Shown here piece after piece: positions 3,876 through 59,288 of a stretch of DNA of 64,000 nt (position 1 is the stretch's first letter; every line of letters starts with the position of its first letter). The stretch lies in the NCBI RefSeq assembly GCF_055900595.2, contig NZ_CM148325.1, one strand, 5' to 3'. Below the pieces are notes generated by a model. It was not told where the DNA came from. It saw nothing but the letters and a program-made list of their open reading frames with translations, and searched no databases. The translations under genes were made by a program, and so were the position numbers.

Positions 3876-4018
3876 GAAACGGGAAAGCCCCTCCCGAGGA
3901 AGGGGCCTTAAATAAGGAAAGGGTCATGATGAAGTGGATCATCATCGTGGTGCTCTTAGTCGTTAGCTACCCAGCTTACTAAGACTACCAGGGCGGGGGA
4001 AACCCCGCTCAACCCTCA
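3876..4018 (-). ncRNA. sib: Sib-family antisense sRNA (antitoxin), copy 1; ends approximate
   Basis: Reverse-strand promoter: -35 TTGACA (4053..4048), 17-bp spacer, -10 TATTTT (4030..4025). Fully antisense to ibs copy 1. Hairpin 3887..3907 plus U-rich tract on the minus strand is the candidate terminator. Confidence 0.6.
3926..3982 (+). CDS. ibs: Ibs-family type I toxin peptide, copy 1 (MMKWIIIVVLLVVSYPAY)
   Basis: 18-codon hydrophobic ORF with ATGATG start and RBS-like aggaaagg upstream, inside the first 328-bp tandem repeat. Matches Ibs toxin family features. Confidence 0.75.
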   Translation: MMKWIIIVVLLVVSYPAY

Positions 4019-4203
4019 CTCCTGAAAATATGCCTTCACGGTCAGAATGTCAATCCGCAGGCTTTGCAGTCTGCGATCCTGCCAGCAAATATTCTTTGCG
4101 AGTCGTTACGCAATAATCACAGATGAAACTATTTTATCTACGCGTTAGCGATAGACTGCATTCAGGGCAAAAGGAGGTAGGCCGACGATTTCAGCGGGAC
4201 GCT

Positions 4204-4346
4204 GAAACGGGAAAGCCCCTCCCGAGGAAGGGGCCTTAAATAAGGAAAGGGTCATGATGAAGCTACTCATCATCGTGGTGCTCTTAGTCATTAGCTTACC
4301 GGCTTACTAAGACTACCAGGGCGGGGGAAACCCCGCTCTACCCTCA
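4204..4346 (-). ncRNA. sib: Sib-family antisense sRNA, copy 2; ends approximate
   Basis: Reverse-strand -35 TTGACA at 4381..4376 with -10 TACTTT at 4358..4353 (17-bp spacer). Antisense to ibs copy 2. Confidence 0.55.
4254..4310 (+). CDS. ibs: Ibs-family type I toxin peptide, copy 2 (MMKLLIIVVLLVISLPAY)
   Basis: Same architecture as copy 1, displaced exactly 328 bp. Confidence 0.75.
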   Translation: MMKLLIIVVLLVISLPAY

Positions 4347-4531
4347 CTCCTGAAAGTATGCTTTCACAATCAGATTGTCAATCCGCAGGCTTTGTAGTCT
4401 GCGATCCTGCCAGCAAATATTCTTTGCGAGACGTTACGCAATAATCACATGTGAAACTATTTTATCTGCAAGTTAGCGATAGACTGCTTGCATGGCGAAA
4501 GGAGGTAGGCCGCCGATTTCAGCGGGACGCT

Positions 4532-4675
4532 GAAACGGGAAAGCCCCTCCCGAGGAAGGGGCCTTAAATAAGGAAAGGGTCATGATGAAGCTACTCATCA
4601 TCGTGGTGCTCTTAGTTATTAGCTGGCCAGCTTACTAAGACTACCAGGGCGGGGGGAAACCCCGCTCTACCCTCA
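4532..4675 (-). ncRNA. sib: Sib-family antisense sRNA, copy 3; ends approximate
   Basis: Reverse-strand -35 TTGACA at 4710..4705; weaker -10 (TAACTT). Antisense to ibs copy 3. Confidence 0.5.
4582..4638 (+). CDS. ibs: Ibs-family type I toxin peptide, copy 3 (MMKLLIIVVLLVISWPAY)
   Basis: Third repeat unit, 328 bp after copy 2; same start context. Confidence 0.75.
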   Translation: MMKLLIIVVLLVISWPAY

Positions 4676-4856
4676 CTCCTGAAGTTATGTTACTCCACCC
4701 TTATTGTCAATCTGTAAGTCCACGTTCTTGCGGGGCGAATAGCAAAACCCTCTGCGCTTATGGGCCGAATTCTGAAAGTTGCTTTGCCTGCTCTTATTTC
4801 ATTGTTGCAGTCGGTATGATACCGGACCTCAATAATTCTCTAAGAAAGGATTTCTT

Positions 4857-20710: not shown

Positions 20711-20750
20711 TCAGTGTATTGGTAGCTAAAAAGCCAGGGGCGGTAGCGTG
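20711..20750 (+). promoter_or_regulatory. JUMPStart element with ops site (GGCGGTAGCGTG at 20739..20750) in the wza leader
   Basis: Exact ops motif; cagtg...ggtagc...ggcggtagcgtg arrangement typical of RfaH-dependent polysaccharide operons. Confidence 0.8.
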
Positions 20751-35285: not shown

Positions 35286-35366
35286 GAAACCGCGGTGTAA
35301 ATAACGACAAATATAAAATTGGCCGTTTCGGTCAGGGCCAACTATTGCCTGAAAAAGGGTAACGAC

Positions 35367-39666: not shown

Positions 39667-39694
39667 GTTGTTGTTTTCGGTTCCGACAACGGTT

Positions 39695-40172
39695 GCCGGG
39701 TGCAGCGTAAAACGCCTTATCCATCCTACGGTTCTGTGCTCGGGACCTGTAGGCCTGATAAGACGCGTCAGCGTCGCATCAGGCACTGAATGCCGGATGC
39801 GGTGTGAACGCCTTATCCGGCCTACGGTTCAGGGCTTGGATCTTGTAGGCCCGATAAGACGCGCCAGCGTCGCATCAGGCACTGAATGCCGGATGCGGCG
39901 TAAAACGCCTTATCCGGCCTACGGTTCTGTGCTCGGGTCTTGTAGGCCTGATAAGACGCGCCAGCGTCGCATCAGGCACTGAATGCCGGATGCGGCGTGA
40001 ACGCCTTATCCATCCTACGGTTCTGTGCTCGGGACCTGTAGGCCTGATAAGACGCGTCAGCGTCGCATCAGGCACTGAATGCCGGATGCGGCGTGAACGC
40101 CTTATCCGGCCTACGGTTCTGTGCTTGGATCTTGTAGGCCTGATAAGAGGCGTCAGCGTCGCATCAGGCAAA
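39695..40172. repeat. Large BIME array: about five tandem units (period about 94-101 bp) of alternating REP palindromes
   Basis: Repeated gcctgataagacgcg...cgtcgcatcaggc and gccggatgcggcg...gccttatccggcctacgg units between wzxC and wcaK. Confidence 0.85.
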
Positions 40173-44307: not shown

Positions 44308-45201
44308 ATGACGAATTTAAAAGCAGTTATTCCTGTAGCGGGTCTTGGGATGCATATGTTGCCTGCCACTAAGGCGATTCCCAAAGAGATGCTACCGATC
44401 GTCGACAAGCCAATGATTCAGTACATTGTTGACGAGATTGTGGCTGCAGGGATCAAAGAAATCCTCCTGGTAACTCACGCGTCCAAGAACGCGGTCGAAA
44501 ACCACTTCGACACCTCTTATGAATTAGAATCTCTTCTTGAGCAGCGCGTGAAGCGTCAACTGCTTGCGGAAGTGCAGTCCATCTGTCCACCGGGCGTGAC
44601 CATTATGAACGTGCGTCAGGGCGAACCTTTAGGTTTAGGCCACTCCATTTTATGTGCACGACCCGCCATTGGTGACAATCCATTTGTCGTGGTGCTGCCA
44701 GACGTTGTGATCGACGACGCCAGCGCCGACCCGCTGCGCTACAACCTTGCTGCCATGATTGCACGATTCAACGAAACGGGTCGTAGCCAGGTGCTGGCAA
44801 AACGTATGCCGGGTGACCTCTCTGAATACTCGGTCATCCAGACCAAAGAACCACTGGACCGTGAAGGTAAAGTCAGCCGCATTGTTGAATTTATCGAAAA
44901 ACCGGATCAGCCGCAGACGTTGGACTCAGACATCATGGCCGTTGGTCGCTATGTGCTTTCTGCCGATATTTGGCCGGAACTTGAATGCACGCAGCCAGGT
45001 GCATGGGGGCGTATTCAGCTGACTGATGCCATCGCTGAACTGGCGAAAAAACAGTCCGTTGATGCCATGCTGATGACAGGTGACAGCTACGACTGCGGTA
45101 AAAAAATGGGTTATATGCAGGCATTTGTGAAGTATGGACTACGCAACCTGAAAGAAGGGGCGAAGTTCCGTAAAGGGATTGAGAAGCTGTTAAGCGAATA
45201 A
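44308..45201 (+). CDS. galF: UTP-glucose-1-phosphate uridylyltransferase-like regulatory subunit GalF (297 aa)
   Basis: ATG at 44308 ([28 protein letters not shown]...); track ORF used an upstream GTG. Confidence 0.93.
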
Positions 45202-45458: not shown

Positions 45459-45497
45459 CAGTGCACTGGTAGCTGTAAAGCCTGGGGCGGTAGCGTG
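45459..45497 (+). promoter_or_regulatory. JUMPStart element with ops site (GGCGGTAGCGTG at 45486..45497) for the O-antigen operon
   Basis: Near-identical to the wza-leader JUMPStart at 20711..20750. Confidence 0.8.
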
Positions 45498-45505
45498 TCT
45501 AGGGG

Positions 45506-46796
45506 CAGGGAAAGATTATCAGAAGTACACTTTTTGTACTAAATAATTCGCATTTTATGTTCAAAAATTGAGATATCCCTCATTACCTAAAACTGTTTTT
45601 CACAGCTTATATATGATCAAATACTCCTTGCTTAAATAAGGAGAACAAAATGGAACTTAAAAAATTGATGGAACATATTTCTGTTATTCCCGATTACAGA
45701 CAAGCCTGGAAAGTGGAATATAATTTGTCGGATATTCTACTGTTGACTATTTGTGCCGTCATTTCTGGTGCAGAAGGCTGGGAAGATATAGAGGATTTTG
45801 GGGAAACACATCTCGATTTTTTGAAGCAATATGGTGATTTTGAAAATGGTATTCCTGTTCACGATACCATTGCCAGAGTTGTATCCTGTATCAGTCCTGC
45901 AAAATTTCACGAGTGCTTTATTAACTGGATGCGTGACTGCCATTCTTCAGATGATAAAGACGTCATTGCAATTGATGGAAAAACGCTCCGGCACTCTTAT
46001 GACAAGAGTCGCCGCAGGGGAGCGATTCATGTCATTAGTGCGTTCTCAACAATGCACAGTCTGGTCATCGGACAGATCAGGACGGATGAGAAATCCAATG
46101 AGATTACAGCTATCCCTGAACTTATTAACATGCTGGATATTAAAGGAAAAATCATCACAACTGATGCGATGGGTTGCCAGAAAGATATTGCAGAGAAGAT
46201 ACAAAAACAGGGAGGTGATTATTTATTCGCTGTAAAAGGAAACCAGGGGCGGCTAAATAAAGCCTTTGAGGAAAAATTTCCGCTGAAAGAATTAAATAAT
46301 CCAGAGCATGACAGTTACGCAATGAGTGAAAAGAGTCACGGCAGAGAAGAAATCCGTCTTCATATTGTTTGCGATGTCCCTGATGAACTTATTGATTTCA
46401 CGTTTGAATGGAAAGGACTGAAAAAATTATGTGTGGCAGCCTCCTTTCGGTCAATAATAGCAGAACAAAAGAAAGAGCCAGAAATGACGGTCAGATATTA
46501 TATCAGTTCTGCTGATTTAACCGCAGAGAAGTTCGCCACAGCAATCCGAAACCACTGGCACGTGGAGAATAAGCTGCACTGGCGTCTGGACGTGGTAATG
46601 AATGAAGACGACTGCAAAATAAGAAGAGGAAATGCAGCAGAATTATTTTCAGGGATACGGCACATCGCTATTAATATTTTGACGAATGATAAGGTATTCA
46701 AGGCAGGGTTAAGACGTAAGATGCGAAAAGCAGCCATGGACAGAAACTATCTGGCGTCAGTCCTTGCGGGGAGCGGGCTTTCGTAATCTTGCCCTG
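45506..46796 (+). mobile_element. ISAs1-family insertion sequence (H-repeat-like), about 1.29 kb
   Basis: Imperfect terminal inverted repeats: cagggaaagatta at 45506..45518, and cagggcaagatta as the reverse complement of 46784..46796. Encloses a single intact transposase ORF. Boundaries approximate. Confidence 0.75.
45650..46786 (+). CDS. ISAs1-family transposase (H-repeat-associated protein, 378 aa)
   Basis: ATG at 45650 with RBS aaggag. The sequence [50 protein letters not shown]... is characteristic of H-repeat/YhhI-family DDE transposases. Confidence 0.85.
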
Positions 46797-46864: not shown

Positions 46865-48109
46865 TTGAGCAAAACTAAACTAAATGTTCTTTACCTTGCA
46901 ATAAGTCAGGGTGCCAATTACCTACTGCCATTATTAATTTTTCCTTATCTTGTTAGAGTCATTGGTGTATCGAATTTTGGTGATCTGAGTTTTTCATTGA
47001 TAACTATACAAGTGTTGTTAATGGTTGTTGAATATGGTTTTGGATATAGTGGGACAAGAGAAATAGCACTAAATAACGATAAAAAATACCATTCTGAATT
47101 TTTTTGCGGTGTGGTGCTTGCTCGTTTTATATTAATGCTAATTGCAGCTATTATACTCATAATACTCTGTTTTTTTTATGTTTTTAACGACGTTAAGTAT
47201 TTGTTATGTGTTGGTTTTCTGTCCGTAATTGCAGGTGTTTTCAATCCAAATTGGTTTTTGCAAGGTAAGGAAATGATGAGTGTGATGGCTGTGCTGTCAC
47301 TATTTTCACGAGGCATAGCAGTCGTTGCAGTTTATCTAATTATAAAACCCGCAACGCCGATGTACATCAGTGCCTTATTATTGAGCATGCCATATATTTT
47401 GTATTCATTCTGTGGCGTTGCCTACTTACTTATTATCAAGGAGATTTTTTTATGTAGGCCACCGATAAAGAAAATTCAAGTAATTTTAAAAAATGGATTT
47501 CATTTTTTTTGTTCAACACTTGCGACTAGTGCATACACAATGTTGACCCCTCTTGTATTGGGTGGCGTATCTGGAAAGTTTGATGTAGGCATCTTTAACT
47601 CAGCTAACATGATCAAACAAGGTTTGGCTGGACTTGCATCACCATTAGTCCAAGCTTTTTATCCAAGAATTAACATTTTGCAAAGAGAGAATCCATATAT
47701 TGCAAACTTAAAATCTAGAATGATTCTTAAATACTTGCTTGTTTTTTACATGGCTTTAGCAATGCCATTTTTACTTTTTGCCAACCAATTATCATTATTA
47801 ATATTCGGCATGAAAGGTGAAGTAATTGCAGGTGCAATGCAATTAATGACATTGCTTCCTATATTCATAGGTTTTAATACAGTTGTCGGGTTACTTGTAT
47901 TAGTACCTAATGGGATGCAAAAACAGTATTTCAAATCTATTTTCCTAGGAACTATTACTTGTTTAAGCATAGTTTATCCAGCATGTAAATATTATGGAGC
48001 AACGGGTGCGATTGTGAGTCTTATTGTAGCTGAAATTTTCGTTGGCATGGGAATGCTTAAACAATTCATTAAAGTAAATAAAACTGTATGTAGGCCTCAT
48101 AAATTATGA
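46865..48109 (+). CDS. wzx: O-antigen flippase Wzx (about 414 aa); start codon uncertain (TTG at 46865)
   Basis: Polytopic membrane protein, low GC; first gene after the JUMPStart/IS. No in-frame ATG upstream. Confidence 0.8.
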   Translation: MSKTKLNVLYLAISQGANYLLPLLIFPYLVRVIGVSNFGDLSFSLITIQVLLMVVEYGFGYSGTREIALNNDKKYHSEFFCGVVLARFILMLIAAIILIILCFFYVFNDVKYLLCVGFLSVIAGVFNPNWFLQGKEMMSVMAVLSLFSRGIAVVAVYLIIKPATPMYISALLLSMPYILYSFCGVAYLLIIKEIFLCRPPIKKIQVILKNGFHFFCSTLATSAYTMLTPLVLGGVSGKFDVGIFNSANMIKQGLAGLASPLVQAFYPRINILQRENPYIANLKSRMILKYLLVFYMALAMPFLLFANQLSLLIFGMKGEVIAGAMQLMTLLPIFIGFNTVVGLLVLVPNGMQKQYFKSIFLGTITCLSIVYPACKYYGATGAIVSLIVAEIFVGMGMLKQFIKVNKTVCRPHKL

Positions 48110-49092
48110 ATATCTCGGTAATAATATCTGTTTGGAAACGCCCAGTTCAATTAGAATTGATTCTCTCTGAGCTCGATTCTCAGGCTAAAGACAATAGTCT
48201 ACACCTAGAAGTAATTGTTTCCGATAGTCATAGTGGTAAAGAAATTGATGATGTAGTTGCTGATAATATTCATAAAAAGAAAAATATTAATATTATCCAT
48301 CAACATACTAAAAATATACTCTCCGCTAAGCGCAATTTCGGAGCATCCCTAGCCCATGGGGATTATTTAATATTTCTTGATGATGATTGTATACCCGCAA
48401 GTGGATATATATCATCGTTGCTGAACTATTTAAAAAAAATGAATAGTAAAAGCGTATTATGTGGGGAAGTTAGATTCGAAAATGAACTCATTGAGACCAG
48501 CAATTACTATCGCTACAGGAACTCTTTACACCCTAAGTTTAGTGATAGTCATGATATCTCTATGAATGCCTGGACTTTTGTCGCAATGAATTGTGTTCTT
48601 GATAGAAAGGCATTTTCATCAGGTATAGTTTCATATAATGAAAATTTTATTGGTTATGGTTGTGAAGATCATGAGTTTGGGTGGCAACTTGAAAAAAATG
48701 ACTTCAAAATTATTTTTGCTGATTTTAAAATATTACATCACGAATACAGTGGCGATATAGAAGGATATACAAAAAAAATTCGTGCTACAGCACGTGATGG
48801 TATGAATGTATTAAGCAAAGTAAGACCTGAAATGTTTTCTACTAATAAAAAATTATTCCTGGTTGAGAAAATATTTAGTAAACACAAAACGTTTAGTAAA
48901 ATATGCCAATCAATATTTTTCAATAAATTTATTTTTAAAAAAATAATACAATTTTTAAAAAAAACAGATGCAAATAAAAAACTCTATTTCCCAATTCTTT
49001 ACAGATATGTGTTGATTTCGGCATATATACATGGTATTGGAGAGCGTGGCACCTCAAAAACAGATGAATTGCTTAAGAACTGGTATATATAG
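48106..49092 (+). CDS. Family-2 glycosyltransferase of the O-antigen cluster (328 aa)
   Basis: ATG at 48106 overlapping the wzx stop; GT2-like N-terminus with DDD motif (IFLDDDCIP). Confidence 0.8.
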   Translation: MNISVIISVWKRPVQLELILSELDSQAKDNSLHLEVIVSDSHSGKEIDDVVADNIHKKKNINIIHQHTKNILSAKRNFGASLAHGDYLIFLDDDCIPASGYISSLLNYLKKMNSKSVLCGEVRFENELIETSNYYRYRNSLHPKFSDSHDISMNAWTFVAMNCVLDRKAFSSGIVSYNENFIGYGCEDHEFGWQLEKNDFKIIFADFKILHHEYSGDIEGYTKKIRATARDGMNVLSKVRPEMFSTNKKLFLVEKIFSKHKTFSKICQSIFFNKFIFKKIIQFLKKTDANKKLYFPILYRYVLISAYIHGIGERGTSKTDELLKNWYI

Positions 49093-49141
49093 ATGATGCT
49101 ATCTTCATTTATTAAGACATTTGTATGGAAGGTAAAAGACA

Positions 49142-50320
49142 ATGAAGTATAATGCATTGATGGCTTTTTTATTATTTTTTGTTGTTTTTTTTAGATTGTC
49201 GCTGATAATACCTTTCTTATATTTGGCATTTATTCCTGCATTTTTTGGTATTATGTATTTAGTGCGTAATTTTATGATTACTATGGGCAATGGATTGGTA
49301 TCTATAGATCGTAAAAATTTGTTGCTGTTATCTATATTCATAATTATTTTTTTATTTTGTATGGTTTTCGATTCGTTTCAAAAAAGCCAATCTTTTCAAA
49401 GCTATTTCACCGTTAGATTATTTATGTTGTTTTTATTTTCATTTGTTCCTGCGTATTATTTAGTAAATAGATTCATAAAGGGTGACTTGAAATTAATGGA
49501 GCGAATATTAGTGTATTCTCTCTGGGTTCAAATAGTTATTTTTTTTGGTATGTATATAAGTCCAGAGTTAAAAAGATTGTTATATACTTTCTTTGGTATG
49601 TCTGACTCAGTTAATCTTTGGGAACAAAATGCTAAAGTAAGAGGATTTGGGTTGTCGGGTGAAATAAATTTCATGACACCATTTTTGATGATCTATATGT
49701 CATTTTTTATGATGAAAAGGCGTTATGCTTTAATTACTTTAATTTGTCTTACTCAAATCGTAAATTCTAACATGGCTGTGATTGCAGCCATTATTGGTAT
49801 CGGTTGCTCTAGACTTAATATTAATATAAAAATTGCAACAGTATTGGTTTTGGGAGTTTTAGTTTATAGCTTAGGAGCGGTGTTCTTCCCTCGATTTTAT
49901 GATGAGTTCGTTTCTGGAGATGGCACAAGAACTCTGGATATCTTATTACAGCAACATGTGTTTGTTGTAGGTAATTTAGATTTTTTTAATATTATATTTG
50001 GATTACAGCAAAACATATCTTCATCAATCCCCGATATTAAACAAAGTTCGGATATGGGCTGGGTTATACTGTTTAATTACGGTGGGTTAACATTTATTAC
50101 ACTCTTTTTATTTTTAATCTTTACTATTTCTATTGCGACATTTGGAATGACATATCAAGCAATTATATGGATGTTAATTGGGATAATTTTCAATACCAAA
50201 GGTTTAGTTTTAGGATCTAACGGCTATTTCTTTCTATCTTTTATATATATGTTTTTGAATAGAGTAACACTTAGTGGACAGAGTTCAATTACTAATAAGT
50301 TAGGCCAAGTAAGTAAATAG
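49142..50320 (+). CDS. wzy: O-antigen polymerase Wzy (392 aa)
   Basis: Highly hydrophobic multi-TM protein, very AT-rich; position between the GT and sugar-synthesis genes. Confidence 0.75.
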   Translation: MKYNALMAFLLFFVVFFRLSLIIPFLYLAFIPAFFGIMYLVRNFMITMGNGLVSIDRKNLLLLSIFIIIFLFCMVFDSFQKSQSFQSYFTVRLFMLFLFSFVPAYYLVNRFIKGDLKLMERILVYSLWVQIVIFFGMYISPELKRLLYTFFGMSDSVNLWEQNAKVRGFGLSGEINFMTPFLMIYMSFFMMKRRYALITLICLTQIVNSNMAVIAAIIGIGCSRLNINIKIATVLVLGVLVYSLGAVFFPRFYDEFVSGDGTRTLDILLQQHVFVVGNLDFFNIIFGLQQNISSSIPDIKQSSDMGWVILFNYGGLTFITLFLFLIFTISIATFGMTYQAIIWMLIGIIFNTKGLVLGSNGYFFLSFIYMFLNRVTLSGQSSITNKLGQVSK

Positions 50321-50361
50321 CTTCCAGAGTATATTTGTCAATAATTTGAGGTTCGGTTATT

Positions 50362-51396
50362 ATGTTTTCATCTAAAACACTGTTAATTACTGGTGGTACT
50401 GGCTCTTTCGGGAATGCTGTATTAAATAGATTTCTTGATACAGATATTGCAGAAATCCGTATATTTAGTCGTGATGAAAAAAAACAAGATGATATGCGGA
50501 AAAAATACAATAATCAAAAATTAAAGTTCTATATTGGTGATGTCAGAGATTACCGTAGTATTTTGAATGCGACTCGCGGTGTTGATTTTATATATCATGC
50601 AGCGGCACTTAAGCAAGTTCCATCATGTGAATTTCATCCTATGGAAGCCGTTAAAACTAATATCCTTGGTACGGAAAATGTTCTTGAAGCAGCTATAGCG
50701 AATGAAGTGAAGAGGGTTGTATGCCTAAGTACTGATAAAGCTGTATACCCGATTAACGCAATGGGTATTTCAAAAGCTATGATGGAAAAGGTCATGGTCG
50801 CGAAATCCCGTAATGTTGATCGCAATAAAACAGTAATATGTGGTACCCGTTATGGGAATGTTATGGCATCTCGCGGTTCAGTTATTCCATTATTTGTTGA
50901 TCTTATTAGAGCGGGCAAGCCACTCACAATAACTGATCCTAATATGACCCGCTTTATGATGACTCTTGAGGATGCGGTAGATTTAGTTCTTTATGCGTTT
51001 GAACATGGTAATAATGGTGATATCTTTGTGCAAAAAGCACCTGCAGCAACTATTGACACATTAGCTATTGCTTTAAAGGAATTACTAAATGTTCCAGACC
51101 ATCCGGTAAATGTCATTGGAACGCGTCATGGCGAGAAATTATATGAAGCTCTACTTAGTCGTGAGGAAATGATCGCTGCTATAGATATGGGTGATTATTA
51201 CCGTGTCCCGCCAGATCTTCGTGACCTTAATTATGGCAAATATGTTGAGCAAGGTGATAGCCGAATATCTGAAATAGAAGATTATAACTCTCATAATACT
51301 CAACGGTTAGATGTTGAAGGCATGAAAGAGCTCTTGCTAAAATTAGCCTTTATTCGAGCAATTCGTGCTGGTGAAAAATATAATCTGGATTCATGA
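50362..51396 (+). CDS. fnlA: UDP-GlcNAc 4,6-dehydratase/5-epimerase FnlA (344 aa)
   Basis: N-terminus MFSSKTLLITGGTGSFG; CapE/WbjB-type SDR. Confidence 0.88.
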   Translation: MFSSKTLLITGGTGSFGNAVLNRFLDTDIAEIRIFSRDEKKQDDMRKKYNNQKLKFYIGDVRDYRSILNATRGVDFIYHAAALKQVPSCEFHPMEAVKTNILGTENVLEAAIANEVKRVVCLSTDKAVYPINAMGISKAMMEKVMVAKSRNVDRNKTVICGTRYGNVMASRGSVIPLFVDLIRAGKPLTITDPNMTRFMMTLEDAVDLVLYAFEHGNNGDIFVQKAPAATIDTLAIALKELLNVPDHPVNVIGTRHGEKLYEALLSREEMIAAIDMGDYYRVPPDLRDLNYGKYVEQGDSRISEIEDYNSHNTQRLDVEGMKELLLKLAFIRAIRAGEKYNLDS

Positions 51397-51397
51397 T

Positions 51398-52501
51398 ATG
51401 AAAATATTAGTTACTGGTGCAAATGGTTTTATTGGTCGTAATTTATGTTTGAGGCTTGAGGAACTTGGTTATAAAGATCTTATTAGAATCGATCGAGAAT
51501 CAACGAAGCAAGATCTTGAACAAGGCTTACAGGATGCCGATTTTATTTATCACTTAGCTGGTATCAATAGACCTAAGACTGATGATGAGTTTATTTCTGG
51601 AAACAGTGATTTAACAAAGCATATAGTTGAGTATCTCCTTTCTATTGGTAAGAATACACCAATTATGCTAAGTTCTTCGATACAAGCTGAACTTAATAAT
51701 GCTTATGGGGTTAGCAAAGCTGTAGCTGAAAGCTATGTCCAAAAATATGCTGCTGCTAGTGGTTCTTCGTATTATATTTTCAGATATCCAAACGTTTTTG
51801 GTAAATGGTGTAAGCCAAACTATAATTCTTTTATAGCAACTTTTTGCTACAATATTTCCAATGATATTGAGATTACTATCAATGATGCATCAGCGCCAGT
51901 CAAACTGGTCTATATTGATGATGTTTGTACTGATGCTATAGCTCTTCTCTCTGGGACGGTTGAAAGCGGATATAAAGTTGTTGCACCAATTTATTCAACA
52001 ACAGTTGGTGAAGTTGCAGAATTAATTTATAGCTTCAAAAATAGCCGTTCCACCCTGATCACAGAGGCTGTCGGGGCGGGATTTACCCGTGCATTGTATT
52101 CTACATGGCTGAGTTATTTACCAGCAGAGAAGTTTGCGTACAAGGTACCTTTTTATGGGGATGCCCGCGGAGTCTTTTGTGAGATGTTGAAAACGCCTTC
52201 AGCGGGGCAGTTTTCATTTTTTACTGCTCACCCTGGTATTACGCGTGGCGGACATTACCATCACAGTAAAAATGAGAAGTTTTTGGTCATTCGAGGTCAG
52301 GCATGCTTTAAATTTGAACATGTGATTACCGGTGAGCGATATGAACTGCAAGTTTCATCGGGTGAGTTTAAGATTGTTGAAACAGTTCCTGGTTGGACAC
52401 ATGACATTACAAATATTGGAACTGATGAATTAATAGTCATGCTCTGGGCAAATGAAATTTTCAACCGTGATGAGCCCGATACTATTGCGAGACCTCTATA
52501 A
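51398..52501 (+). CDS. fnlB: UDP-L-FucNAc pathway reductase/3-epimerase FnlB (367 aa)
   Basis: ATG at 51398 (MKILVTGANGFIGRNL...), 2 nt after the fnlA stop; C-terminal cupin-like extension. Confidence 0.85.
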   Translation: MKILVTGANGFIGRNLCLRLEELGYKDLIRIDRESTKQDLEQGLQDADFIYHLAGINRPKTDDEFISGNSDLTKHIVEYLLSIGKNTPIMLSSSIQAELNNAYGVSKAVAESYVQKYAAASGSSYYIFRYPNVFGKWCKPNYNSFIATFCYNISNDIEITINDASAPVKLVYIDDVCTDAIALLSGTVESGYKVVAPIYSTTVGEVAELIYSFKNSRSTLITEAVGAGFTRALYSTWLSYLPAEKFAYKVPFYGDARGVFCEMLKTPSAGQFSFFTAHPGITRGGHYHHSKNEKFLVIRGQACFKFEHVITGERYELQVSSGEFKIVETVPGWTHDITNIGTDELIVMLWANEIFNRDEPDTIARPL

Positions 52502-53631
52502 TGAAAAAATTAAAAGTTATGTCTGTTGTTGGAACCCGTCCTGAGATTATCCGTTTGTCGAGGGTTCTTGCTAAGTTTGATGAATACTGCGAGCATATTA
52601 TTGTCCATACTGGTCAAAATTATGATTACGAATTAAATGAAGTGTTCTTCAATGACTTGGGTGTTCGAAAACCTGATTATTTTTTAAATGCAGCGGGTAA
52701 AAATGCGGCGGAAACCATTGGCCAGGTTATTATTAAGGTAGATGAAGTATTAGAAATCGAAAAACCTGAAGCAATACTGGTATTGGGCGATACGAATTCA
52801 TGTATTTCTGCCATTCCGGCCAAACGCCGTAAAGTGCCTATATTTCATATGGAAGCAGGTAACCGGTGTTTCGATCAACGCGTGCCTGAAGAAACCAACA
52901 GACGTATTGTTGACCATACGGCTGATATCAATATGACCTACAGTGATATTGCTCGTGAATATCTCTTGGCTGAAGGTATCCCAGCTGATCGGATCATAAA
53001 AACTGGTAGCCCTATGTTTGAGGTTCTTTCATATTATATGCCCCAAATTGATGGTTCAGATGTGCTATCGCGTTTGAATCTACAGTCTGGTGAGTTTTTT
53101 GTAGTAAGTGCGCATCGTGAAGAGAATGTTGATTCGCCAAAACAGCTCGTAAAGCTTGCGAACATTCTAAATACTGTTGCTGAAAAATATAATCTTCCAG
53201 TTATTGTCTCCACACACCCAAGGACACGTAACCGAATCCGTGAGCAAGGAATTGAATTTCATTCAAATATAAATCTACTAAAACCATTGGGTTTCCATGA
53301 TTATAACCACTTGCAGAAGAACTCACGAGCTGTGCTTTCAGATAGCGGTACTATCACTGAAGAGTCATCCATCATGAATTTCCCAGCGGTAAACATCCGG
53401 GAAGCGCATGAGCGTCCGGAAGGCTTTGAGGAAGCATCCGTCATGATGGTGGGGTTAGAGTGTGAACGCGTATTACAAGCGCTGGATATTCTGGCAACAC
53501 AACCGAGAGGTGAAGTCCGTCTTTTACGTCAGGTTAGTGATTACAGCATGCCAAATGTGTCGGATAAAGTTGTCAGAATTGTTCACTCTTACACAGATTA
53601 TGTTAAGAGAGTCGTCTGGAAAGAATATTGA
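52501..53631 (+). CDS. fnlC: UDP-N-acetylglucosamine/UDP-L-PneNAc 2-epimerase FnlC (376 aa)
   Basis: ATG at 52501 overlapping the fnlB stop; non-hydrolysing 2-epimerase fold (MKKLKVMSVVGTRPEIIRL...). Confidence 0.88.
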   Translation: MKKLKVMSVVGTRPEIIRLSRVLAKFDEYCEHIIVHTGQNYDYELNEVFFNDLGVRKPDYFLNAAGKNAAETIGQVIIKVDEVLEIEKPEAILVLGDTNSCISAIPAKRRKVPIFHMEAGNRCFDQRVPEETNRRIVDHTADINMTYSDIAREYLLAEGIPADRIIKTGSPMFEVLSYYMPQIDGSDVLSRLNLQSGEFFVVSAHREENVDSPKQLVKLANILNTVAEKYNLPVIVSTHPRTRNRIREQGIEFHSNINLLKPLGFHDYNHLQKNSRAVLSDSGTITEESSIMNFPAVNIREAHERPEGFEEASVMMVGLECERVLQALDILATQPRGEVRLLRQVSDYSMPNVSDKVVRIVHSYTDYVKRVVWKEY

Positions 53632-54842
53632 TGAAACTTGCTTTAATCATAGATGATTACCTGCCCAACAGTACTCGTGTTGGTGCAAAAATGTTTCATG
53701 AACTTGCTCAAGAATTTATCCAGCGTGGGCACGATGTTACGGTAATTACTCCTGGTACGGGCATGCAAGAAGAGATTTCTTTTGATACCTTTCAGGGGGT
53801 AAAAACATGGCGTTTTAAAAGCGGGCCGCTCAAGGATGTAAGTAAAATTCAGCGAGCGATCAATGAAACGCTTTTGTCCTATCGGGCGTGGAAAGCCATC
53901 AAAAAATGGGTAAAAAAAGAGACCTTTGAGGGGGTGATTTATTATTCACCTTCCATATTCTGGGGGCATTTAGTTAAAAAAATTAAAGCTCGTTGCCAAT
54001 GTCCTGCTTATCTTATTTTAAGAGATATGTTTCCACAATGGGTAATTGATGCAGGAATGCTTAATGCTGGTTCCCCAATAGAACGCTACTTTCGTCTTTT
54101 TGAAAAAATATCTTATCGTCAGGCAAATTTTATTGGACTTATGTCTGATAAGAATCTTGATGTTTTTCGGAAAGATAATAAAGGCTATCCGTGCGAAGTT
54201 TTGCGTAATTGGGCCTCCCTAACACCAACGATCATACCCAAGGATTATATACCACTACGTAAGCGACTTGGCCTAGAGGATAAAACCATTTTCTTCTATG
54301 GTGGAAACATAGGTCATGCACAGGACATGACAAACTTGATGCGACTTGTGAGAAACATGGCAGCATATCCTCAAGCTCATTTCCTATTTATTGGCCAGGG
54401 GGATGAAGTTGAATTAATTAATTCATTAGCCTCTGAGTGGGCATTGACGAATTTCACCTATTTGCCCTCGGTTAATCAGGATGAATTTAAGTTCATTTTG
54501 TCGGAAATGGATATCGGCTTGTTTTCTCTTTCCGCTAGACACTCTTCCCATAATTTTCCTGGTAAGTTATTAGGCTATATGGTTCAGTCGCTACCTATTT
54601 TAGGTAGCGTAAATGCCGGAAATGATTTGCTCGACATTGTCAATCAAAATAATGCCGGATTAATCCATGTCAATGGTGAGGATGATAAATTATGTCAATC
54701 TGCGCTATTAATGTTGCATGATATTGATGTGCGCCGGCAACTTGGTTCGGGGGCGAATATATTGTTGAAAGAACAATTCTCCGTTGAGTCTGCGGCACAG
54801 ACGATAGAAATGAGGTTGGAGGCATGCAATGCGATTAATTGA
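53631..54842 (+). CDS. wbuB: L-FucNAc transferase WbuB (GT1/GT4, about 403 aa)
   Basis: ATG at 53631 overlapping the fnlC stop (TGATG); GT4-type glycosyltransferase following fnlABC. Confidence 0.82.
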   Translation: MKLALIIDDYLPNSTRVGAKMFHELAQEFIQRGHDVTVITPGTGMQEEISFDTFQGVKTWRFKSGPLKDVSKIQRAINETLLSYRAWKAIKKWVKKETFEGVIYYSPSIFWGHLVKKIKARCQCPAYLILRDMFPQWVIDAGMLNAGSPIERYFRLFEKISYRQANFIGLMSDKNLDVFRKDNKGYPCEVLRNWASLTPTIIPKDYIPLRKRLGLEDKTIFFYGGNIGHAQDMTNLMRLVRNMAAYPQAHFLFIGQGDEVELINSLASEWALTNFTYLPSVNQDEFKFILSEMDIGLFSLSARHSSHNFPGKLLGYMVQSLPILGSVNAGNDLLDIVNQNNAGLIHVNGEDDKLCQSALLMLHDIDVRRQLGSGANILLKEQFSVESAAQTIEMRLEACNAIN

Positions 54843-55227
54843 TAATGACCAACTCGACGAATTATATGATCAAGCCGGGCAATCGGAACGTTTACGTTCC
54901 CACCTTATGATGCACGGCTCGCATCAAGAAAAGGTACAGCGTTTACTTATTGCATTAGTAAAGGGCAGCTATGTTGAACCGCATTATCACGAACTTCCTC
55001 ATCAGTGGGAAATGTTCATTGTTATGGAGGGGCAACTTAAGGTTTGTTTATATGGTAGAAATGGTGAGGTTATAAAGCAATTTATAGCAGGAGATAATAC
55101 TGGAATAAGCATTGTGGAGTTTTCTCCGGGCGATATACACAGTGTCGAATGCCTATCTCCGCGTGCTCTTATGGTGGAAGTTAAGGAGGGGCCATTTGAC
55201 CCTTCTTTTGCAAAATCGTTCGTGTGA
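54829..55227 (+). CDS. wbuC: WbuC, small cupin-like protein of unknown function (132 aa)
   Basis: ATG at 54829 overlapping the wbuB 3' end; conserved partner of fnlABC/wbuB clusters. Confidence 0.75.
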   Translation: MRLIDNDQLDELYDQAGQSERLRSHLMMHGSHQEKVQRLLIALVKGSYVEPHYHELPHQWEMFIVMEGQLKVCLYGRNGEVIKQFIAGDNTGISIVEFSPGDIHSVECLSPRALMVEVKEGPFDPSFAKSFV

Positions 55228-55343: not shown

Positions 55344-56750
55344 ATGTCAAAGCAACAGATCGGCGTCGTCGGTATGGCAGTGATGGGGCGCAATCTTGCG
55401 CTTAACATCGAAAGCCGTGGTTATACCGTCTCTATTTTCAACCGTTCCCGTGAAAAGACGGAAGAAGTGATTGCCGAAAATCCAGGCAAAAAACTGGTTC
55501 CTTACTATACGGTGAAAGAGTTCGTTGAATCTCTGGAAACGCCTCGTCGCATCCTGTTAATGGTTAAAGCAGGTGCAGGCACGGATGCTGCTATTGATTC
55601 CCTCAAACCATATCTCGATAAAGGTGACATCATCATTGATGGTGGTAACACCTTCTTCCAGGACACTATTCGTCGTAACCGTGAGCTTTCTGCAGAAGGC
55701 TTTAACTTCATCGGTACCGGTGTTTCCGGCGGTGAAGAGGGGGCGCTGAAAGGGCCTTCCATTATGCCTGGTGGGCAGAAAGAAGCCTATGAACTGGTTG
55801 CTCCGATCCTGACCAAAATCGCCGCCGTTGCTGAAGATGGCGAACCGTGCGTTACCTATATTGGTGCCGATGGCGCGGGTCACTATGTGAAGATGGTTCA
55901 CAACGGTATTGAATACGGTGATATGCAACTGATTGCTGAAGCCTATTCTCTGCTTAAAGGTGGCCTGAATCTTTCCAACGAAGAACTGGCGCAGACGTTT
56001 ACCGAGTGGAATAACGGTGAACTGAGCAGCTACCTGATCGACATCACCAAAGACATCTTCACTAAAAAAGATGAAGACGGTAACTACCTGGTTGATGTGA
56101 TCCTGGATGAAGCGGCTAACAAAGGTACCGGTAAATGGACCAGCCAGAGCGCGCTTGATCTCGGCGAACCGCTGTCGCTGATTACCGAGTCTGTGTTTGC
56201 ACGATACATCTCTTCTCTGAAAGAGCAGCGTGTTGCCGCATCTAAAGTTCTTTCTGGTCCGCAAGCGCAGCCTGCTGGCGACAAAGGTGAATTCATCGAA
56301 AAAGTTCGCCGTGCGCTGTATCTGGGTAAAATCGTTTCTTACGCTCAGGGCTTCTCTCAGCTACGCGCTGCGTCTGAAGAGTACAACTGGGATCTGAACT
56401 ACGGTGAAATCGCGAAGATTTTCCGTGCTGGCTGCATCATCCGTGCGCAGTTCCTGCAGAAAATCACCGATGCTTATGCCGAAAATCCGCAGATCGCTAA
56501 CCTGTTGCTGGCTCCTTACTTCAAGCAAATTGCCGATGACTACCAGCAGGCGCTGCGCGATGTCGTCGCTTACGCAGTACAGAACGGTATCCCGGTGCCG
56601 ACCTTCGCCGCTGCTGTTGCCTATTACGACAGCTACCGCGCCGCTGTTCTGCCTGCGAACCTGATCCAGGCACAGCGTGACTATTTCGGTGCGCATACTT
56701 ATAAGCGCATTGATAAAGAAGGTGTGTTCCATACTGAATGGCTGGATTAA
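55344..56750 (+). CDS. gnd: 6-phosphogluconate dehydrogenase (decarboxylating) Gnd (468 aa)
   Basis: [27 protein letters not shown]...; higher GC than the upstream O-antigen genes. Confidence 0.97.
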
Positions 56751-58310: not shown

Positions 58311-59288
58311 ATGAGAGTAGAAAATAATAATGTTTCTGGGCAAAACCATGACCCGGAACAGATTGATTTGATTGATTTACTAGTGCAGTTGTGGCGTGGC
58401 AAGATGACAATCATCATTTCCGTCATTGTGGCTATTGCCCTGGCTATTGGATATTTGGCAGTAGCGAAGGAGAAATGGACGTCAACAGCAATTATCACTC
58501 AGCCCGACGTGGGGCAAATTGCTGGCTATAACAATGCCATGAATGTTATCTATGGTCAGGCTGCGCCGAAAGTATCGGATTTACAGGAAACGTTGATTGG
58601 TCGCTTCAGTTCTGCCTTCTCTGCATTAGCAGAAACGCTGGATAATCAGGAAGAGCCAGAAAAGCTTACCATCGAACCTTCTGTTAAGAACCAGCAATTA
58701 CCATTGACTGTTTCTTATGTTGGGCAAACTGCAGAGGGCGCACAAATGAAGTTGGCCCAATACATTCAGCAAGTTGACGATAAAGTGAATCAAGAGCTAG
58801 AAAAGGATCTCAAGGACAACATTGCTCTGGGACGGAAAAACTTGCAGGACTCTTTAAGAACGCAGGAAGTGGTTGCGCAGGAGCAGAAAGATCTGCGTAT
58901 CCGTCAGATTCAGGAAGCGTTGCAGTATGCGAATCAGGCGCAGGTGACAAAGCCGCAGATTCAGCAGACACAGGACGTAACCCAAGATACTATGTTCCTT
59001 TTGGGGAGCGAAGCGCTGGAGTCGATGATTAAGCACGAGGCGACTCGTCCGTTGGTGTTCTCATCAAACTACTATCAGACTCGTCAAAACCTGCTGGATA
59101 TCGAAAGCTTAAAAGTTGATGATCTTGATATTCATGCTTACCGCTATGTGATGAAACCGACGTTACCTATTCGTCGCGATAGCCCGAAAAAGGCAATTAC
59201 CTTGATTCTGGCGGTGCTGCTGGGCGGCATGGTTGGCGCGGGGATTGTGTTGGGGCGTAATGCTCTGCGTAATTACAACGCGAAGTAA
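58311..59288 (+). CDS. wzzB: O-antigen chain-length determinant WzzB (about 325 aa; start could be ATG at 58308)
   Basis: MRVENNNVSGQNHDPEQIDLIDL...; PCP-1 family with N- and C-terminal TM segments. Track ORF begins 12 codons upstream. Confidence 0.9.
   Translation: MRVENNNVSGQNHDPEQIDLIDLLVQLWRGKMTIIISVIVAIALAIGYLAVAKEKWTSTAIITQPDVGQIAGYNNAMNVIYGQAAPKVSDLQETLIGRFSSAFSALAETLDNQEEPEKLTIEPSVKNQQLPLTVSYVGQTAEGAQMKLAQYIQQVDDKVNQELEKDLKDNIALGRKNLQDSLRTQEVVAQEQKDLRIRQIQEALQYANQAQVTKPQIQQTQDVTQDTMFLLGSEALESMIKHEATRPLVFSSNYYQTRQNLLDIESLKVDDLDIHAYRYVMKPTLPIRRDSPKKAITLILAVLLGGMVGAGIVLGRNALRNYNAK

Follow-up and report, generated by a model that had tools for sequence, protein, structure and literature searches.

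An O15-Type O-Antigen Gene Cluster at the galF–gnd Locus of Escherichia coli

The stretch of DNA analysed here (64 kb, hereafter 'the window') very probably carries the O-antigen gene cluster of Escherichia coli serogroup O15, a Wzx/Wzy-dependent locus at the usual galF–gnd site. We place the probability of this reading, including the biosynthetic pathway proposed below, at roughly 93%. The cluster has been described before, as have its sugar pathway and repeat unit; the locus is an ordinary one and holds no new biology. Its recognition allows the source strain to be typed as O15, a serogroup of clinical relevance among extraintestinal E. coli. Both the ExPEC9V and the ExPEC10V bioconjugate vaccine candidates include the O15 polysaccharide as a component (PMC11813929). 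A wider, though small, use of the sequence lies in its mosaic architecture, in the ISAs1 element found at JUMPstart in nearly all O15 genomes examined, and in the existence of a Citrobacter counterpart.

Serogroup Assignment

The assignment follows from the 5' part of the cluster. Of 5426 complete E. coli genomes, 99 have a counterpart at least 99% identical at the nucleotide level to the segment comprising wzx, a family 2 glycosyltransferase gene (GT2), and wzy (3456 bp). In all 99, NCBI annotates the flippase and the polymerase as 'O15 family', and the set includes strains that are called O15:H12 or O15:H18. No further genome of the 5426 matched this segment at the megablast level, and neither did any other serogroup. 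When the region from galF to gnd was used as the query, at least 80% of it was covered in 99 genomes. The initial annotation had named no serogroup; matching wzx and wzy to complete E. coli genomes leads to O15, which we take to be an L-FucNAc-containing serogroup.

The window differs from the O15 strain M160133 by three substitutions and one indel over 64 kb, and the gene tables of the two are identical in content and order. Compared with the E. coli O15 cluster in general, the gene order, the flanks, and the position of ISAs1 upstream of wzx are all the same, and no substantive difference was found. That cluster is said to have been described by Beutin et al. in 2005, in J Clin Microbiol 43:703. 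The serogroup-wide collections of Iguchi 2015 (PMC4379981) and DebRoy 2016 (PMC4732683) contain it as well.

Cluster Organisation and Base Composition

Eight intact genes in a single orientation, spanning positions 46865–55227, lie between galF and gnd (Table 1). The open reading frames and the family searches agree with the content given in the initial annotation (wzx, GT2, wzy, fnlABC, wbuB, and wbuC), with Wzy recognised from annotation and topology, and a check of the reading frames found all eight to be intact. That annotation had also described a cluster devoid of rml genes and equipped with two glycosyltransferases. Both statements hold: no rml gene lies between galF and gnd, and GT2 and WbuB are the only transferases. 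The chain-length regulator gene wzzB lies outside the cluster, with which it shares a pathway.

Table 1. Features of the O-antigen locus and its surroundings, with positions in the window.
Feature	Position	Strand	Assignment	Evidence and properties
galF	44308..45201	+	Conserved 5' flank of O-antigen locus	TIGR01105, 685.7 bits; annotation of identical genome
JUMPstart	45459..45497	+	Contains ops motif GGCGGTAGCGTG (45486-45497)	Rfam RF01707, 49.6 bits (gathering score 35)
ISAs1	45506..46796	+	ISAs1-family (ISEc1-like, 'H-repeat') element, 1291 bp	NF033564, 415.9 bits; PF01609/PF13808
wzx	46865..48109	+	O15 O-unit flippase	414 aa, TTG start; PF01943, E 6.9e-33; about 12 hydrophobic segments
GT2	48106..49092	+	GT2 glycosyltransferase	328 aa; GT-A fold, DDD motif; PF00535, E 2.5e-19
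wzy	49142..50320	+	Putative O15 O-antigen polymerase	392 aa; polytopic membrane protein, about 9 hydrophobic segments
fnlA	50362..51396	+	UDP-GlcNAc 4,6-dehydratase/5-epimerase, step 1	TIGR04130, 757.6 bits (cut-off 730), 1-337/337
fnlB	51398..52501	+	Reductase (wbjC/cap5F type), step 2	NF047837, 551.7 bits (cut-off 500)
fnlC	52501..53631	+	Non-hydrolysing UDP-sugar 2-epimerase, step 3, predicted to give UDP-L-FucNAc	PF02350, E 1.7e-93
wbuB	53631..54842	+	GT4-type (GT-B fold) predicted L-FucNAc transferase	PF00534/PF13439
wbuC	54829..55227	+	Cupin-fold protein	TIGR04366, 143 bits (cut-off 42)
gnd	55344..56750	+	Conserved 3' flank of O-antigen locus	Annotation of identical genome
wzzB	58311..59288	+	O-antigen chain-length regulator	Annotation of near-identical genome M160133

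The cluster has a GC content of 36.1%, compared with 49.5% for the whole window and about 51% for its flanks (50.9% in galF and 50.5% in gnd), in keeping with the AT-richness remarked on earlier. Within it, GC content is 31.3% across wzx–GT2–wzy versus 39.6% across fnlA–wbuC, and wzy has the lowest value of any gene in the cluster (29.3%). Two parts make up this mosaic cluster: a serogroup-specific 5' part (wzx–GT2–wzy, 31% GC) and, joined to it, a 3' fnlABC–wbuBC cassette (40% GC). This cassette, located beside gnd, is common to several other E. coli serogroups.

The Repeat Unit and Its Assembly

The serogroup-specific part encodes the flippase, the putative polymerase, and one of the two transferases. 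The wzx region is 100% identical to one annotated 'O15 family O-antigen flippase'. No Pfam or NCBIfam model matched Wzy when E values of up to 10 were admitted; in identical genomes it is named 'O15 family O-antigen polymerase' by NCBI, and related clusters keep it at the same position.

GT2 shows a weak additional match to Glyco_transf_7C. Among solved structures, it has partial matches to N-terminal GT-A domains only (the PglI glucosyltransferase and chondroitin synthase), which are uninformative on its donor; the closest, PglI, is aligned over the N-terminal half only (E 2.7e-10). Homologues of GT2 occur in Citrobacter and Aeromonas within the same wzx–GT2–wzy–fnlABC block, which is present in Citrobacter portucalensis, C. 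cronae, and Aeromonas veronii. The recurrence of this block in other genera supports the prediction that the GT2 acceptor contains L-FucNAc. GT2 would then add the third sugar, β-D-Gal, onto L-FucNAc. The choice of Gal as the donor sugar comes from the reported O15 structure; the sequence itself does not show the donor.

Full-text searches of the literature turned up no paper in which the O15 repeat unit is written out. This unit was reportedly determined by Perepelov et al. in 2011 as →2)-β-D-Gal-(1→3)-α-L-FucNAc-(1→3)-β-D-GlcNAc-(1→, and we take it to be a plain linear trisaccharide of Gal, L-FucNAc, and GlcNAc. The initial annotation had predicted a trisaccharide containing L-FucNAc and initiated by WecA, which agrees with this structure.

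Assembly can be proposed to proceed as follows. WecA, encoded outside the window, would start the unit by placing GlcNAc-P on undecaprenyl phosphate, to which WbuB would then add L-FucNAc. GT2, which has an inverting fold, would add a β-linked housekeeping sugar, namely D-Gal from UDP-Gal if the reported O15 structure is followed. UDP-Gal would require no gene in the cluster. The trisaccharide unit would be flipped by Wzx and polymerised by Wzy, with WzzB setting the chain length, and WaaL, also encoded outside the window, would ligate the chain to the lipid A-core.

The repeat might instead comprise more than three sugars, or bear side groups, through the action of genes located outside the cluster, such as gtr-type prophage genes or O-acetyltransferases. 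Modification genes of this kind are widespread in E. coli and are not known to lie in the galF–gnd cluster, and our view is limited to 64 kb of the genome, both of which leave room for a larger unit. However, the open reading frame list and family searches detected neither an acetyltransferase nor an additional transferase in the cluster, and the reported O15 structure is linear and carries three sugars. A larger or decorated repeat is therefore very unlikely, and the linear trisaccharide is the reading adopted here.

The Upstream Region and Expression of the Cluster

The functional locus begins upstream of position 46865, at JUMPstart, and includes an ISAs1 insertion. Both features lie just outside the span delimited by the initial annotation. 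JUMPstart, with its ops motif located by pattern match, is the signal through which RfaH brings about antitermination in the O-antigen operon. The ISAs1 element, which runs in the direction of the operon, separates JUMPstart from wzx. It is bounded by 13-nt terminal inverted repeats (45506–45518 and 46784–46796) and encodes an intact transposase of 378 aa (45650–46786). Transcription is expected to begin upstream of JUMPstart/ops and, with RfaH, would pass through the co-oriented element into wzx.

The insertion was considered as a strain-specific feature, an idea that was rejected: the junction between ISAs1 and wzx occurs in 98 genomes, compared with 99 in which the O15 segment is present. 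The junction between JUMPstart and the element is found in 172 genomes, which means that other serogroups carry it too. In the O30 and O2/O50 genomes inspected, the ISAs1 copies lie elsewhere in the locus.

An insertion in this position raises the alternative that the cluster is present but unexpressed, in a rough or semi-rough strain, through either a polar effect of ISAs1 or slippage in a tract of eight adenines (A8) in fnlA. The element does place 1.3 kb between the ops element and wzx. Against a polar effect, it is co-oriented with the operon, no terminator-like site was found on its + strand, and the genomes that share the ISAs1–wzx junction include strains serotyped as O15, so the insertion is compatible with O15 expression.

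The A8 tract occupies positions 50476–50483. Three checked O15 assemblies (M160133, AGR6137, and NCTC86) have seven or nine adenines here together with an annotated frameshift, the near-identical M160133 having seven, and in one other O15 assembly fnlA is disrupted by IS1. In the window, by contrast, fnlA is full length with eight adenines, as it is in at least 94 of the 99 O15 genomes. The fnlB and fnlC genes are likewise intact, which disposes of the concern, raised by the initial annotation, that the fnl genes might be pseudogenes. Taken together, silence of the cluster is highly improbable, and an expressed O15 antigen remains the preferred reading. The tract is interrupted in the fnlA copies of O26, O108, O118/O151, and Citrobacter. 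A role for the uninterrupted A8 tract as a switch, in which slippage would shut down and restore production of the O15 antigen, is very unlikely.

The fnlABC–wbuBC Cassette

By sequence, FnlA, FnlB, and FnlC are full length and belong to the family of three enzymes that together turn UDP-GlcNAc into UDP-L-FucNAc. In addition to the family matches in Table 1, FnlA matches PDB entry 4j2o (E 1.7e-190), and FnlC scores 220.8 bits against TIGR00236 (cut-off 210.15). The start of fnlB is placed at the ATG at 51398, as in the NCBI annotation of an identical genome, while its longest open reading frame runs from a GTG at 51365. Similar enzymes are found in other genera. The Cap5/8 E–F–G proteins of Staphylococcus aureus include full-length counterparts of FnlA (CapE, E 1.9e-150) and FnlB (Cap5F, E 4.1e-101), both of known structure, and NCBI names the FnlB gene wbjC; Pseudomonas aeruginosa has the corresponding WbjB–C–D pathway to UDP-L-FucNAc. 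These enzymes belong to capsule or O-antigen loci in which the transferases and initiating sugars differ from those of O15. The P. aeruginosa O11 locus presumably has a similar gene order, wzx–GT2–wzy–wbjBCD–GT4.

The WbuB protein shares 99% amino acid identity with that of O118/O151, 87% with O108, 86% with O29, and 72% with O26. WbuB proteins of homology group HG5 share 51–99% pairwise identity and have been assigned the L-FucNAc-α1,3-GlcNAc linkage (PMC7685785); at 72–99% identity to these four proteins, the WbuB of the window falls within that range. Transferases of this group attach L-FucNAc, or a close relative of this sugar, to GlcNAc, and the WbuB of the window probably makes L-FucNAc-α1,3-GlcNAc-PP-undecaprenol. 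The constant companion of wbuB is wbuC, which adjoins it in O26, O118/O151, O108, O29, and O145.

It is extremely improbable that the fnl product is another 2-acetamido-2,6-dideoxy-L-hexose (L-QuiNAc, L-RhaNAc, L-PneNAc, or L-FucNAm) and that the repeat lacks L-FucNAc, since FnlA, the WbjC-type reductase, and the 2-epimerase all score above equivalog cut-offs, and the cluster is that of O15, for which L-FucNAc is the reported sugar. Related cassettes in O118/O151 and O145 do lead to L-FucNAm, and WbuB-group enzymes of O98, O123, and O181 transfer L-QuiNAc-type sugars (PMC7685785). However, O118/O151 carries three additional genes immediately upstream of fnlA (amidotransferase, HisH-like, and HisF-like) for the acetamidino form, and their absence from the window fits plain L-FucNAc.

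Related Clusters in E. coli and Citrobacter

The initial annotation had likened the cluster to that of O26, in which the order is rmlBDAC–wzx–wzy–wbuA–fnlABC–wbuB–wbuC. The resemblance holds for the 3' cassette, which adjoins gnd in the same order in both, with amino acid identities of 90% for FnlA, 72% for FnlB, 90% for FnlC, 72% for WbuB, and 71% for WbuC, and 74% identity across fnlABC at the DNA level. Each cluster also pairs one GT2 enzyme with WbuB. The resemblance does not extend further: O26 has four rml genes and a wzx–wzy–GT2 order, wzx is only 23% identical at the amino acid level, and GT2 and wzy have no tblastn match in O26 at E 1e-3. O26 was consequently rejected as the closest relative, as the relatedness is confined to the 3' cassette.

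Within E. coli, the fnlA–wbuC cassette is closest to the copies in O118/O151 (98.5% nucleotide identity) and O145 (94.6%). They likewise adjoin gnd, but the 5' halves of both clusters are unrelated to that of the window.

Taken as a whole, the cluster has its nearest relative in C. portucalensis, at 87.7% nucleotide identity. This relative is collinear from wzx to wbuC and also lies between galF and gnd, with individual genes 82.5–93.7% identical at the nucleotide level and 80–96% at the amino acid level. The Citrobacter locus has no ISAs1 element, and a truncated rmlB remnant follows JUMPstart instead. Its flanks are more diverged than the cluster itself (73% nucleotide identity in wcaM, 80% in galF, and 75% in ugd). 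This near-complete counterpart illustrates the exchange of O-antigen loci between genera.

The O15 O-antigen cluster

The gene cluster between galF and gnd is, on sequence comparison, the known O-antigen cluster of Escherichia coli serogroup O15, and this serogroup is the piece missing from the interpretation in the initial annotation. The assignment rests on the match of the wzx-GT2-wzy segment to genomes annotated as O15, and on the near-identity of the window to the O15 strain M160133. Among 5426 complete E. coli genomes, 99 carry the segment at 99% identity or more, and no others match at that level. In the matching genomes, the NCBI names of its products are 'O15 family O-antigen flippase' and 'O15 family O-antigen polymerase', and O15:H12 or O15:H18 forms part of several strain names. 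Over 64 kb, three substitutions and one single-base indel separate the window from M160133. That strain is a urine isolate from New York. The O15 cluster was reportedly first sequenced by Beutin et al. in 2005, and also belongs to the full serogroup collections of Iguchi (2015) and DebRoy (2016). All the findings described here have either been described already or are routine for E. coli O-antigen loci.

An ORF scan from galF to gnd recovered nine ORFs, all co-oriented. The first encodes an ISAs1-family transposase, while the remaining eight occupy exactly positions 46865-55227. The observations of the initial annotation hold in all respects: the ORFs, with family assignments for all but wzy, recover the same set of eight genes (see table), rml genes are absent from galF to gnd, and the cluster is AT-rich (36.1% GC; galF 50.9%, gnd 50.5%, whole window 49.5%). 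GC content is 31% in the 5' part, wzx-GT2-wzy.

Features of the O-antigen locus and other elements of the window
Feature	Position	Strand	Description or evidence
Sib/Ibs modules	3911-4710		Rfam SIB_RNA, 136-140 bits each
JUMPstart (second)	20712-20750		
algC RNA motif	35313-35362		
Tandem array	39694-40170		4.9 copies of a 96-bp unit; four Rfam naRNA4 (REP-derived) matches, minus strand
galF	44308-45201		
JUMPstart with ops motif	45459-45497	+	Rfam RF01707, 49.6 bits
ISAs1/ISEc1-like element	45506-46796	+	1291 bp; 13-nt terminal inverted repeats; intact 378-aa transposase
Transposase ORF	45650-46786	+	ISAs1 family
wzx	46865-48109	+	PF01943
GT2	48106-49092	+	PF00535
wzy	49142-50320	+	~9 hydrophobic segments; without model match
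fnlA	50362-51396	+	TIGR04130, 757.6 bits (cut-off 730), full length
fnlA A8 tract	50476-50483		
fnlB	51398-52501	+	NF047837, 551.7 bits (cut-off 500)
fnlC	52501-53631	+	TIGR00236, 220.8 bits (cut-off 210.15)
wbuB	53631-54842	+	GT4-type fold
wbuC	54829-55227	+	TIGR04366, 143 bits (cut-off 42)
gnd	55344-56750		
wzzB	58311-59288	+	chain-length regulator

Predicted repeat unit

The interpretation in the initial annotation, a trisaccharide repeat containing L-FucNAc, is supported. Judged by sequence, the UDP-L-FucNAc pathway is complete, with an intact gene for each of its three enzymes, and the solved structures matched by FnlA (4j2o, E 1.7e-190; CapE, E 1.9e-150) and FnlB (Cap5F, E 4.1e-101) belong to the same pathway. 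WbuB is 72-99% identical to its counterparts in O26, O29, O108, and O118/O151, a homology group that has been assigned to the L-FucNAc-alpha1,3-GlcNAc linkage (PMC7685785). Besides WbuB, the cluster encodes only one transferase (GT2), in line with the two glycosyltransferases originally counted, and carries no further sugar-synthesis gene.

From established knowledge of Wzx/Wzy-dependent synthesis, we infer that WecA, encoded elsewhere, would begin the unit with GlcNAc, that WbuB would add L-FucNAc, and that GT2 would add a sugar whose precursor comes from housekeeping genes, yielding a trisaccharide. The unit would then be flipped by Wzx and polymerised by Wzy, with chain length set by WzzB. 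The O15 repeat is reportedly ->2)-beta-D-Galp-(1->3)-alpha-L-FucpNAc-(1->3)-beta-D-GlcpNAc-(1-> (Perepelov et al., 2011), and the third sugar, added by GT2, is therefore presumably Gal. Both the inverting type of the GT2 enzyme and the lack of a dedicated sugar gene in the cluster are consistent with a beta-linked Gal. Plain L-FucNAc also fits better than its acetamidino form, because the amidotransferase, HisH-like, and HisF-like genes that lie directly upstream of the 98.5%-identical fnl cassette in O118/O151 are absent here.

Integrity of fnlA

The fnl genes, whose inactivation the initial annotation had named as refuting its interpretation, are not pseudogenes in the window, where fnlA is in frame with an A8 homopolymer tract, as it is in at least 94 of the 99 O15 genomes. 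The tract is A7 in strains M160133 and AGR6137 and A9 in NCTC86, and fnlA is annotated as frameshifted in all three; NZ_OZ489144.2 and NZ_LT601384.1 have a 1-base length difference within a 100-bp stretch around the tract. Such variants of plus or minus one base could reflect sequencing or assembly errors at the homopolymer, or genuine slippage with loss of the O antigen. E. coli THO-008 has an otherwise O15-type cluster in which IS1 has truncated fnlA at its 5' end (L017 591-1288), and the product of fnlA is likewise labelled only 'polysaccharide biosynthesis protein' in two further assemblies, STN0717-11 and ECO_2_R. These three are probably O-antigen-negative variants.

Mosaic structure and relatives in other genera

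The cluster is a mosaic of an O15-specific 5' part and a 3' cassette common to other serogroups. Within E. coli, wzx-GT2-wzy is specific to O15. The fnlABC-wbuB-wbuC cassette, which adjoins gnd, also occurs in O118/O151 (98.5% nucleotide identity), O145 (94.6%), O108 and O29 (both ~80%), and O26 (74% over fnlABC; 71-90% at the amino acid level). The proposed resemblance to an O26 cluster lacking rml genes thus holds for architecture and the 3' cassette, but not for wzx (23% amino acid identity), for GT2 and wzy (no detectable similarity), or for gene order.

The nearest relative of the entire cluster is a complete, collinear O15-type cluster between galF and gnd in Citrobacter portucalensis (L004 6336-17641). 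It is 87.7% identical to the window in nucleotide sequence overall (82.5-93.7% per gene), while identity falls to 73-80% in wcaM, galF, and ugd on its flanks. Higher similarity in the cluster than in the chromosomal backbone is the signature of exchange between genera. A more distant wzx-GT2-wzy-fnlABC block is found in Citrobacter cronae and Aeromonas veronii (L006 7752-15761, L008 7768-15753), with 42-53% amino acid identity for Wzx, GT2, and Wzy. Downstream of the block in these two species come a different GT4, a small Bac_transf initiating transferase, a DegT aminotransferase, and a PglF-like dehydratase. These downstream genes would serve another initiating sugar, and the loci suggest the same outer disaccharide with a different initiating sugar beneath.

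Upstream region and other features of the window

The JUMPstart upstream of wzx and the ISAs1 element, which starts 8 bp downstream of it in the operon's orientation, were both missed in the initial annotation. Because the junction between the element and wzx occurs in 98 genomes, compared with 99 carrying the O15 wzx-GT2-wzy segment, the element is almost fixed in the O15 locus of E. coli and would be compatible with O15 expression. No terminator-like site was found on its + strand, and no obvious target-site duplication surrounds it. The junction between JUMPstart and the IS is present in more genomes, 172, and is therefore shared by some other serogroups. The C. portucalensis locus, in contrast, lacks the IS and carries in its place, after JUMPstart, a truncated rmlB remnant (82 N-terminal amino acids).

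Elsewhere in the window, the colanic acid operon has a JUMPstart of its own upstream of wza, and an algC RNA motif lies upstream of cpsG. The tandem array is located between wzxC and wcaK of the colanic acid cluster, and three tandem Sib antitoxin RNA/Ibs type I toxin modules lie between mdtA and yegL.
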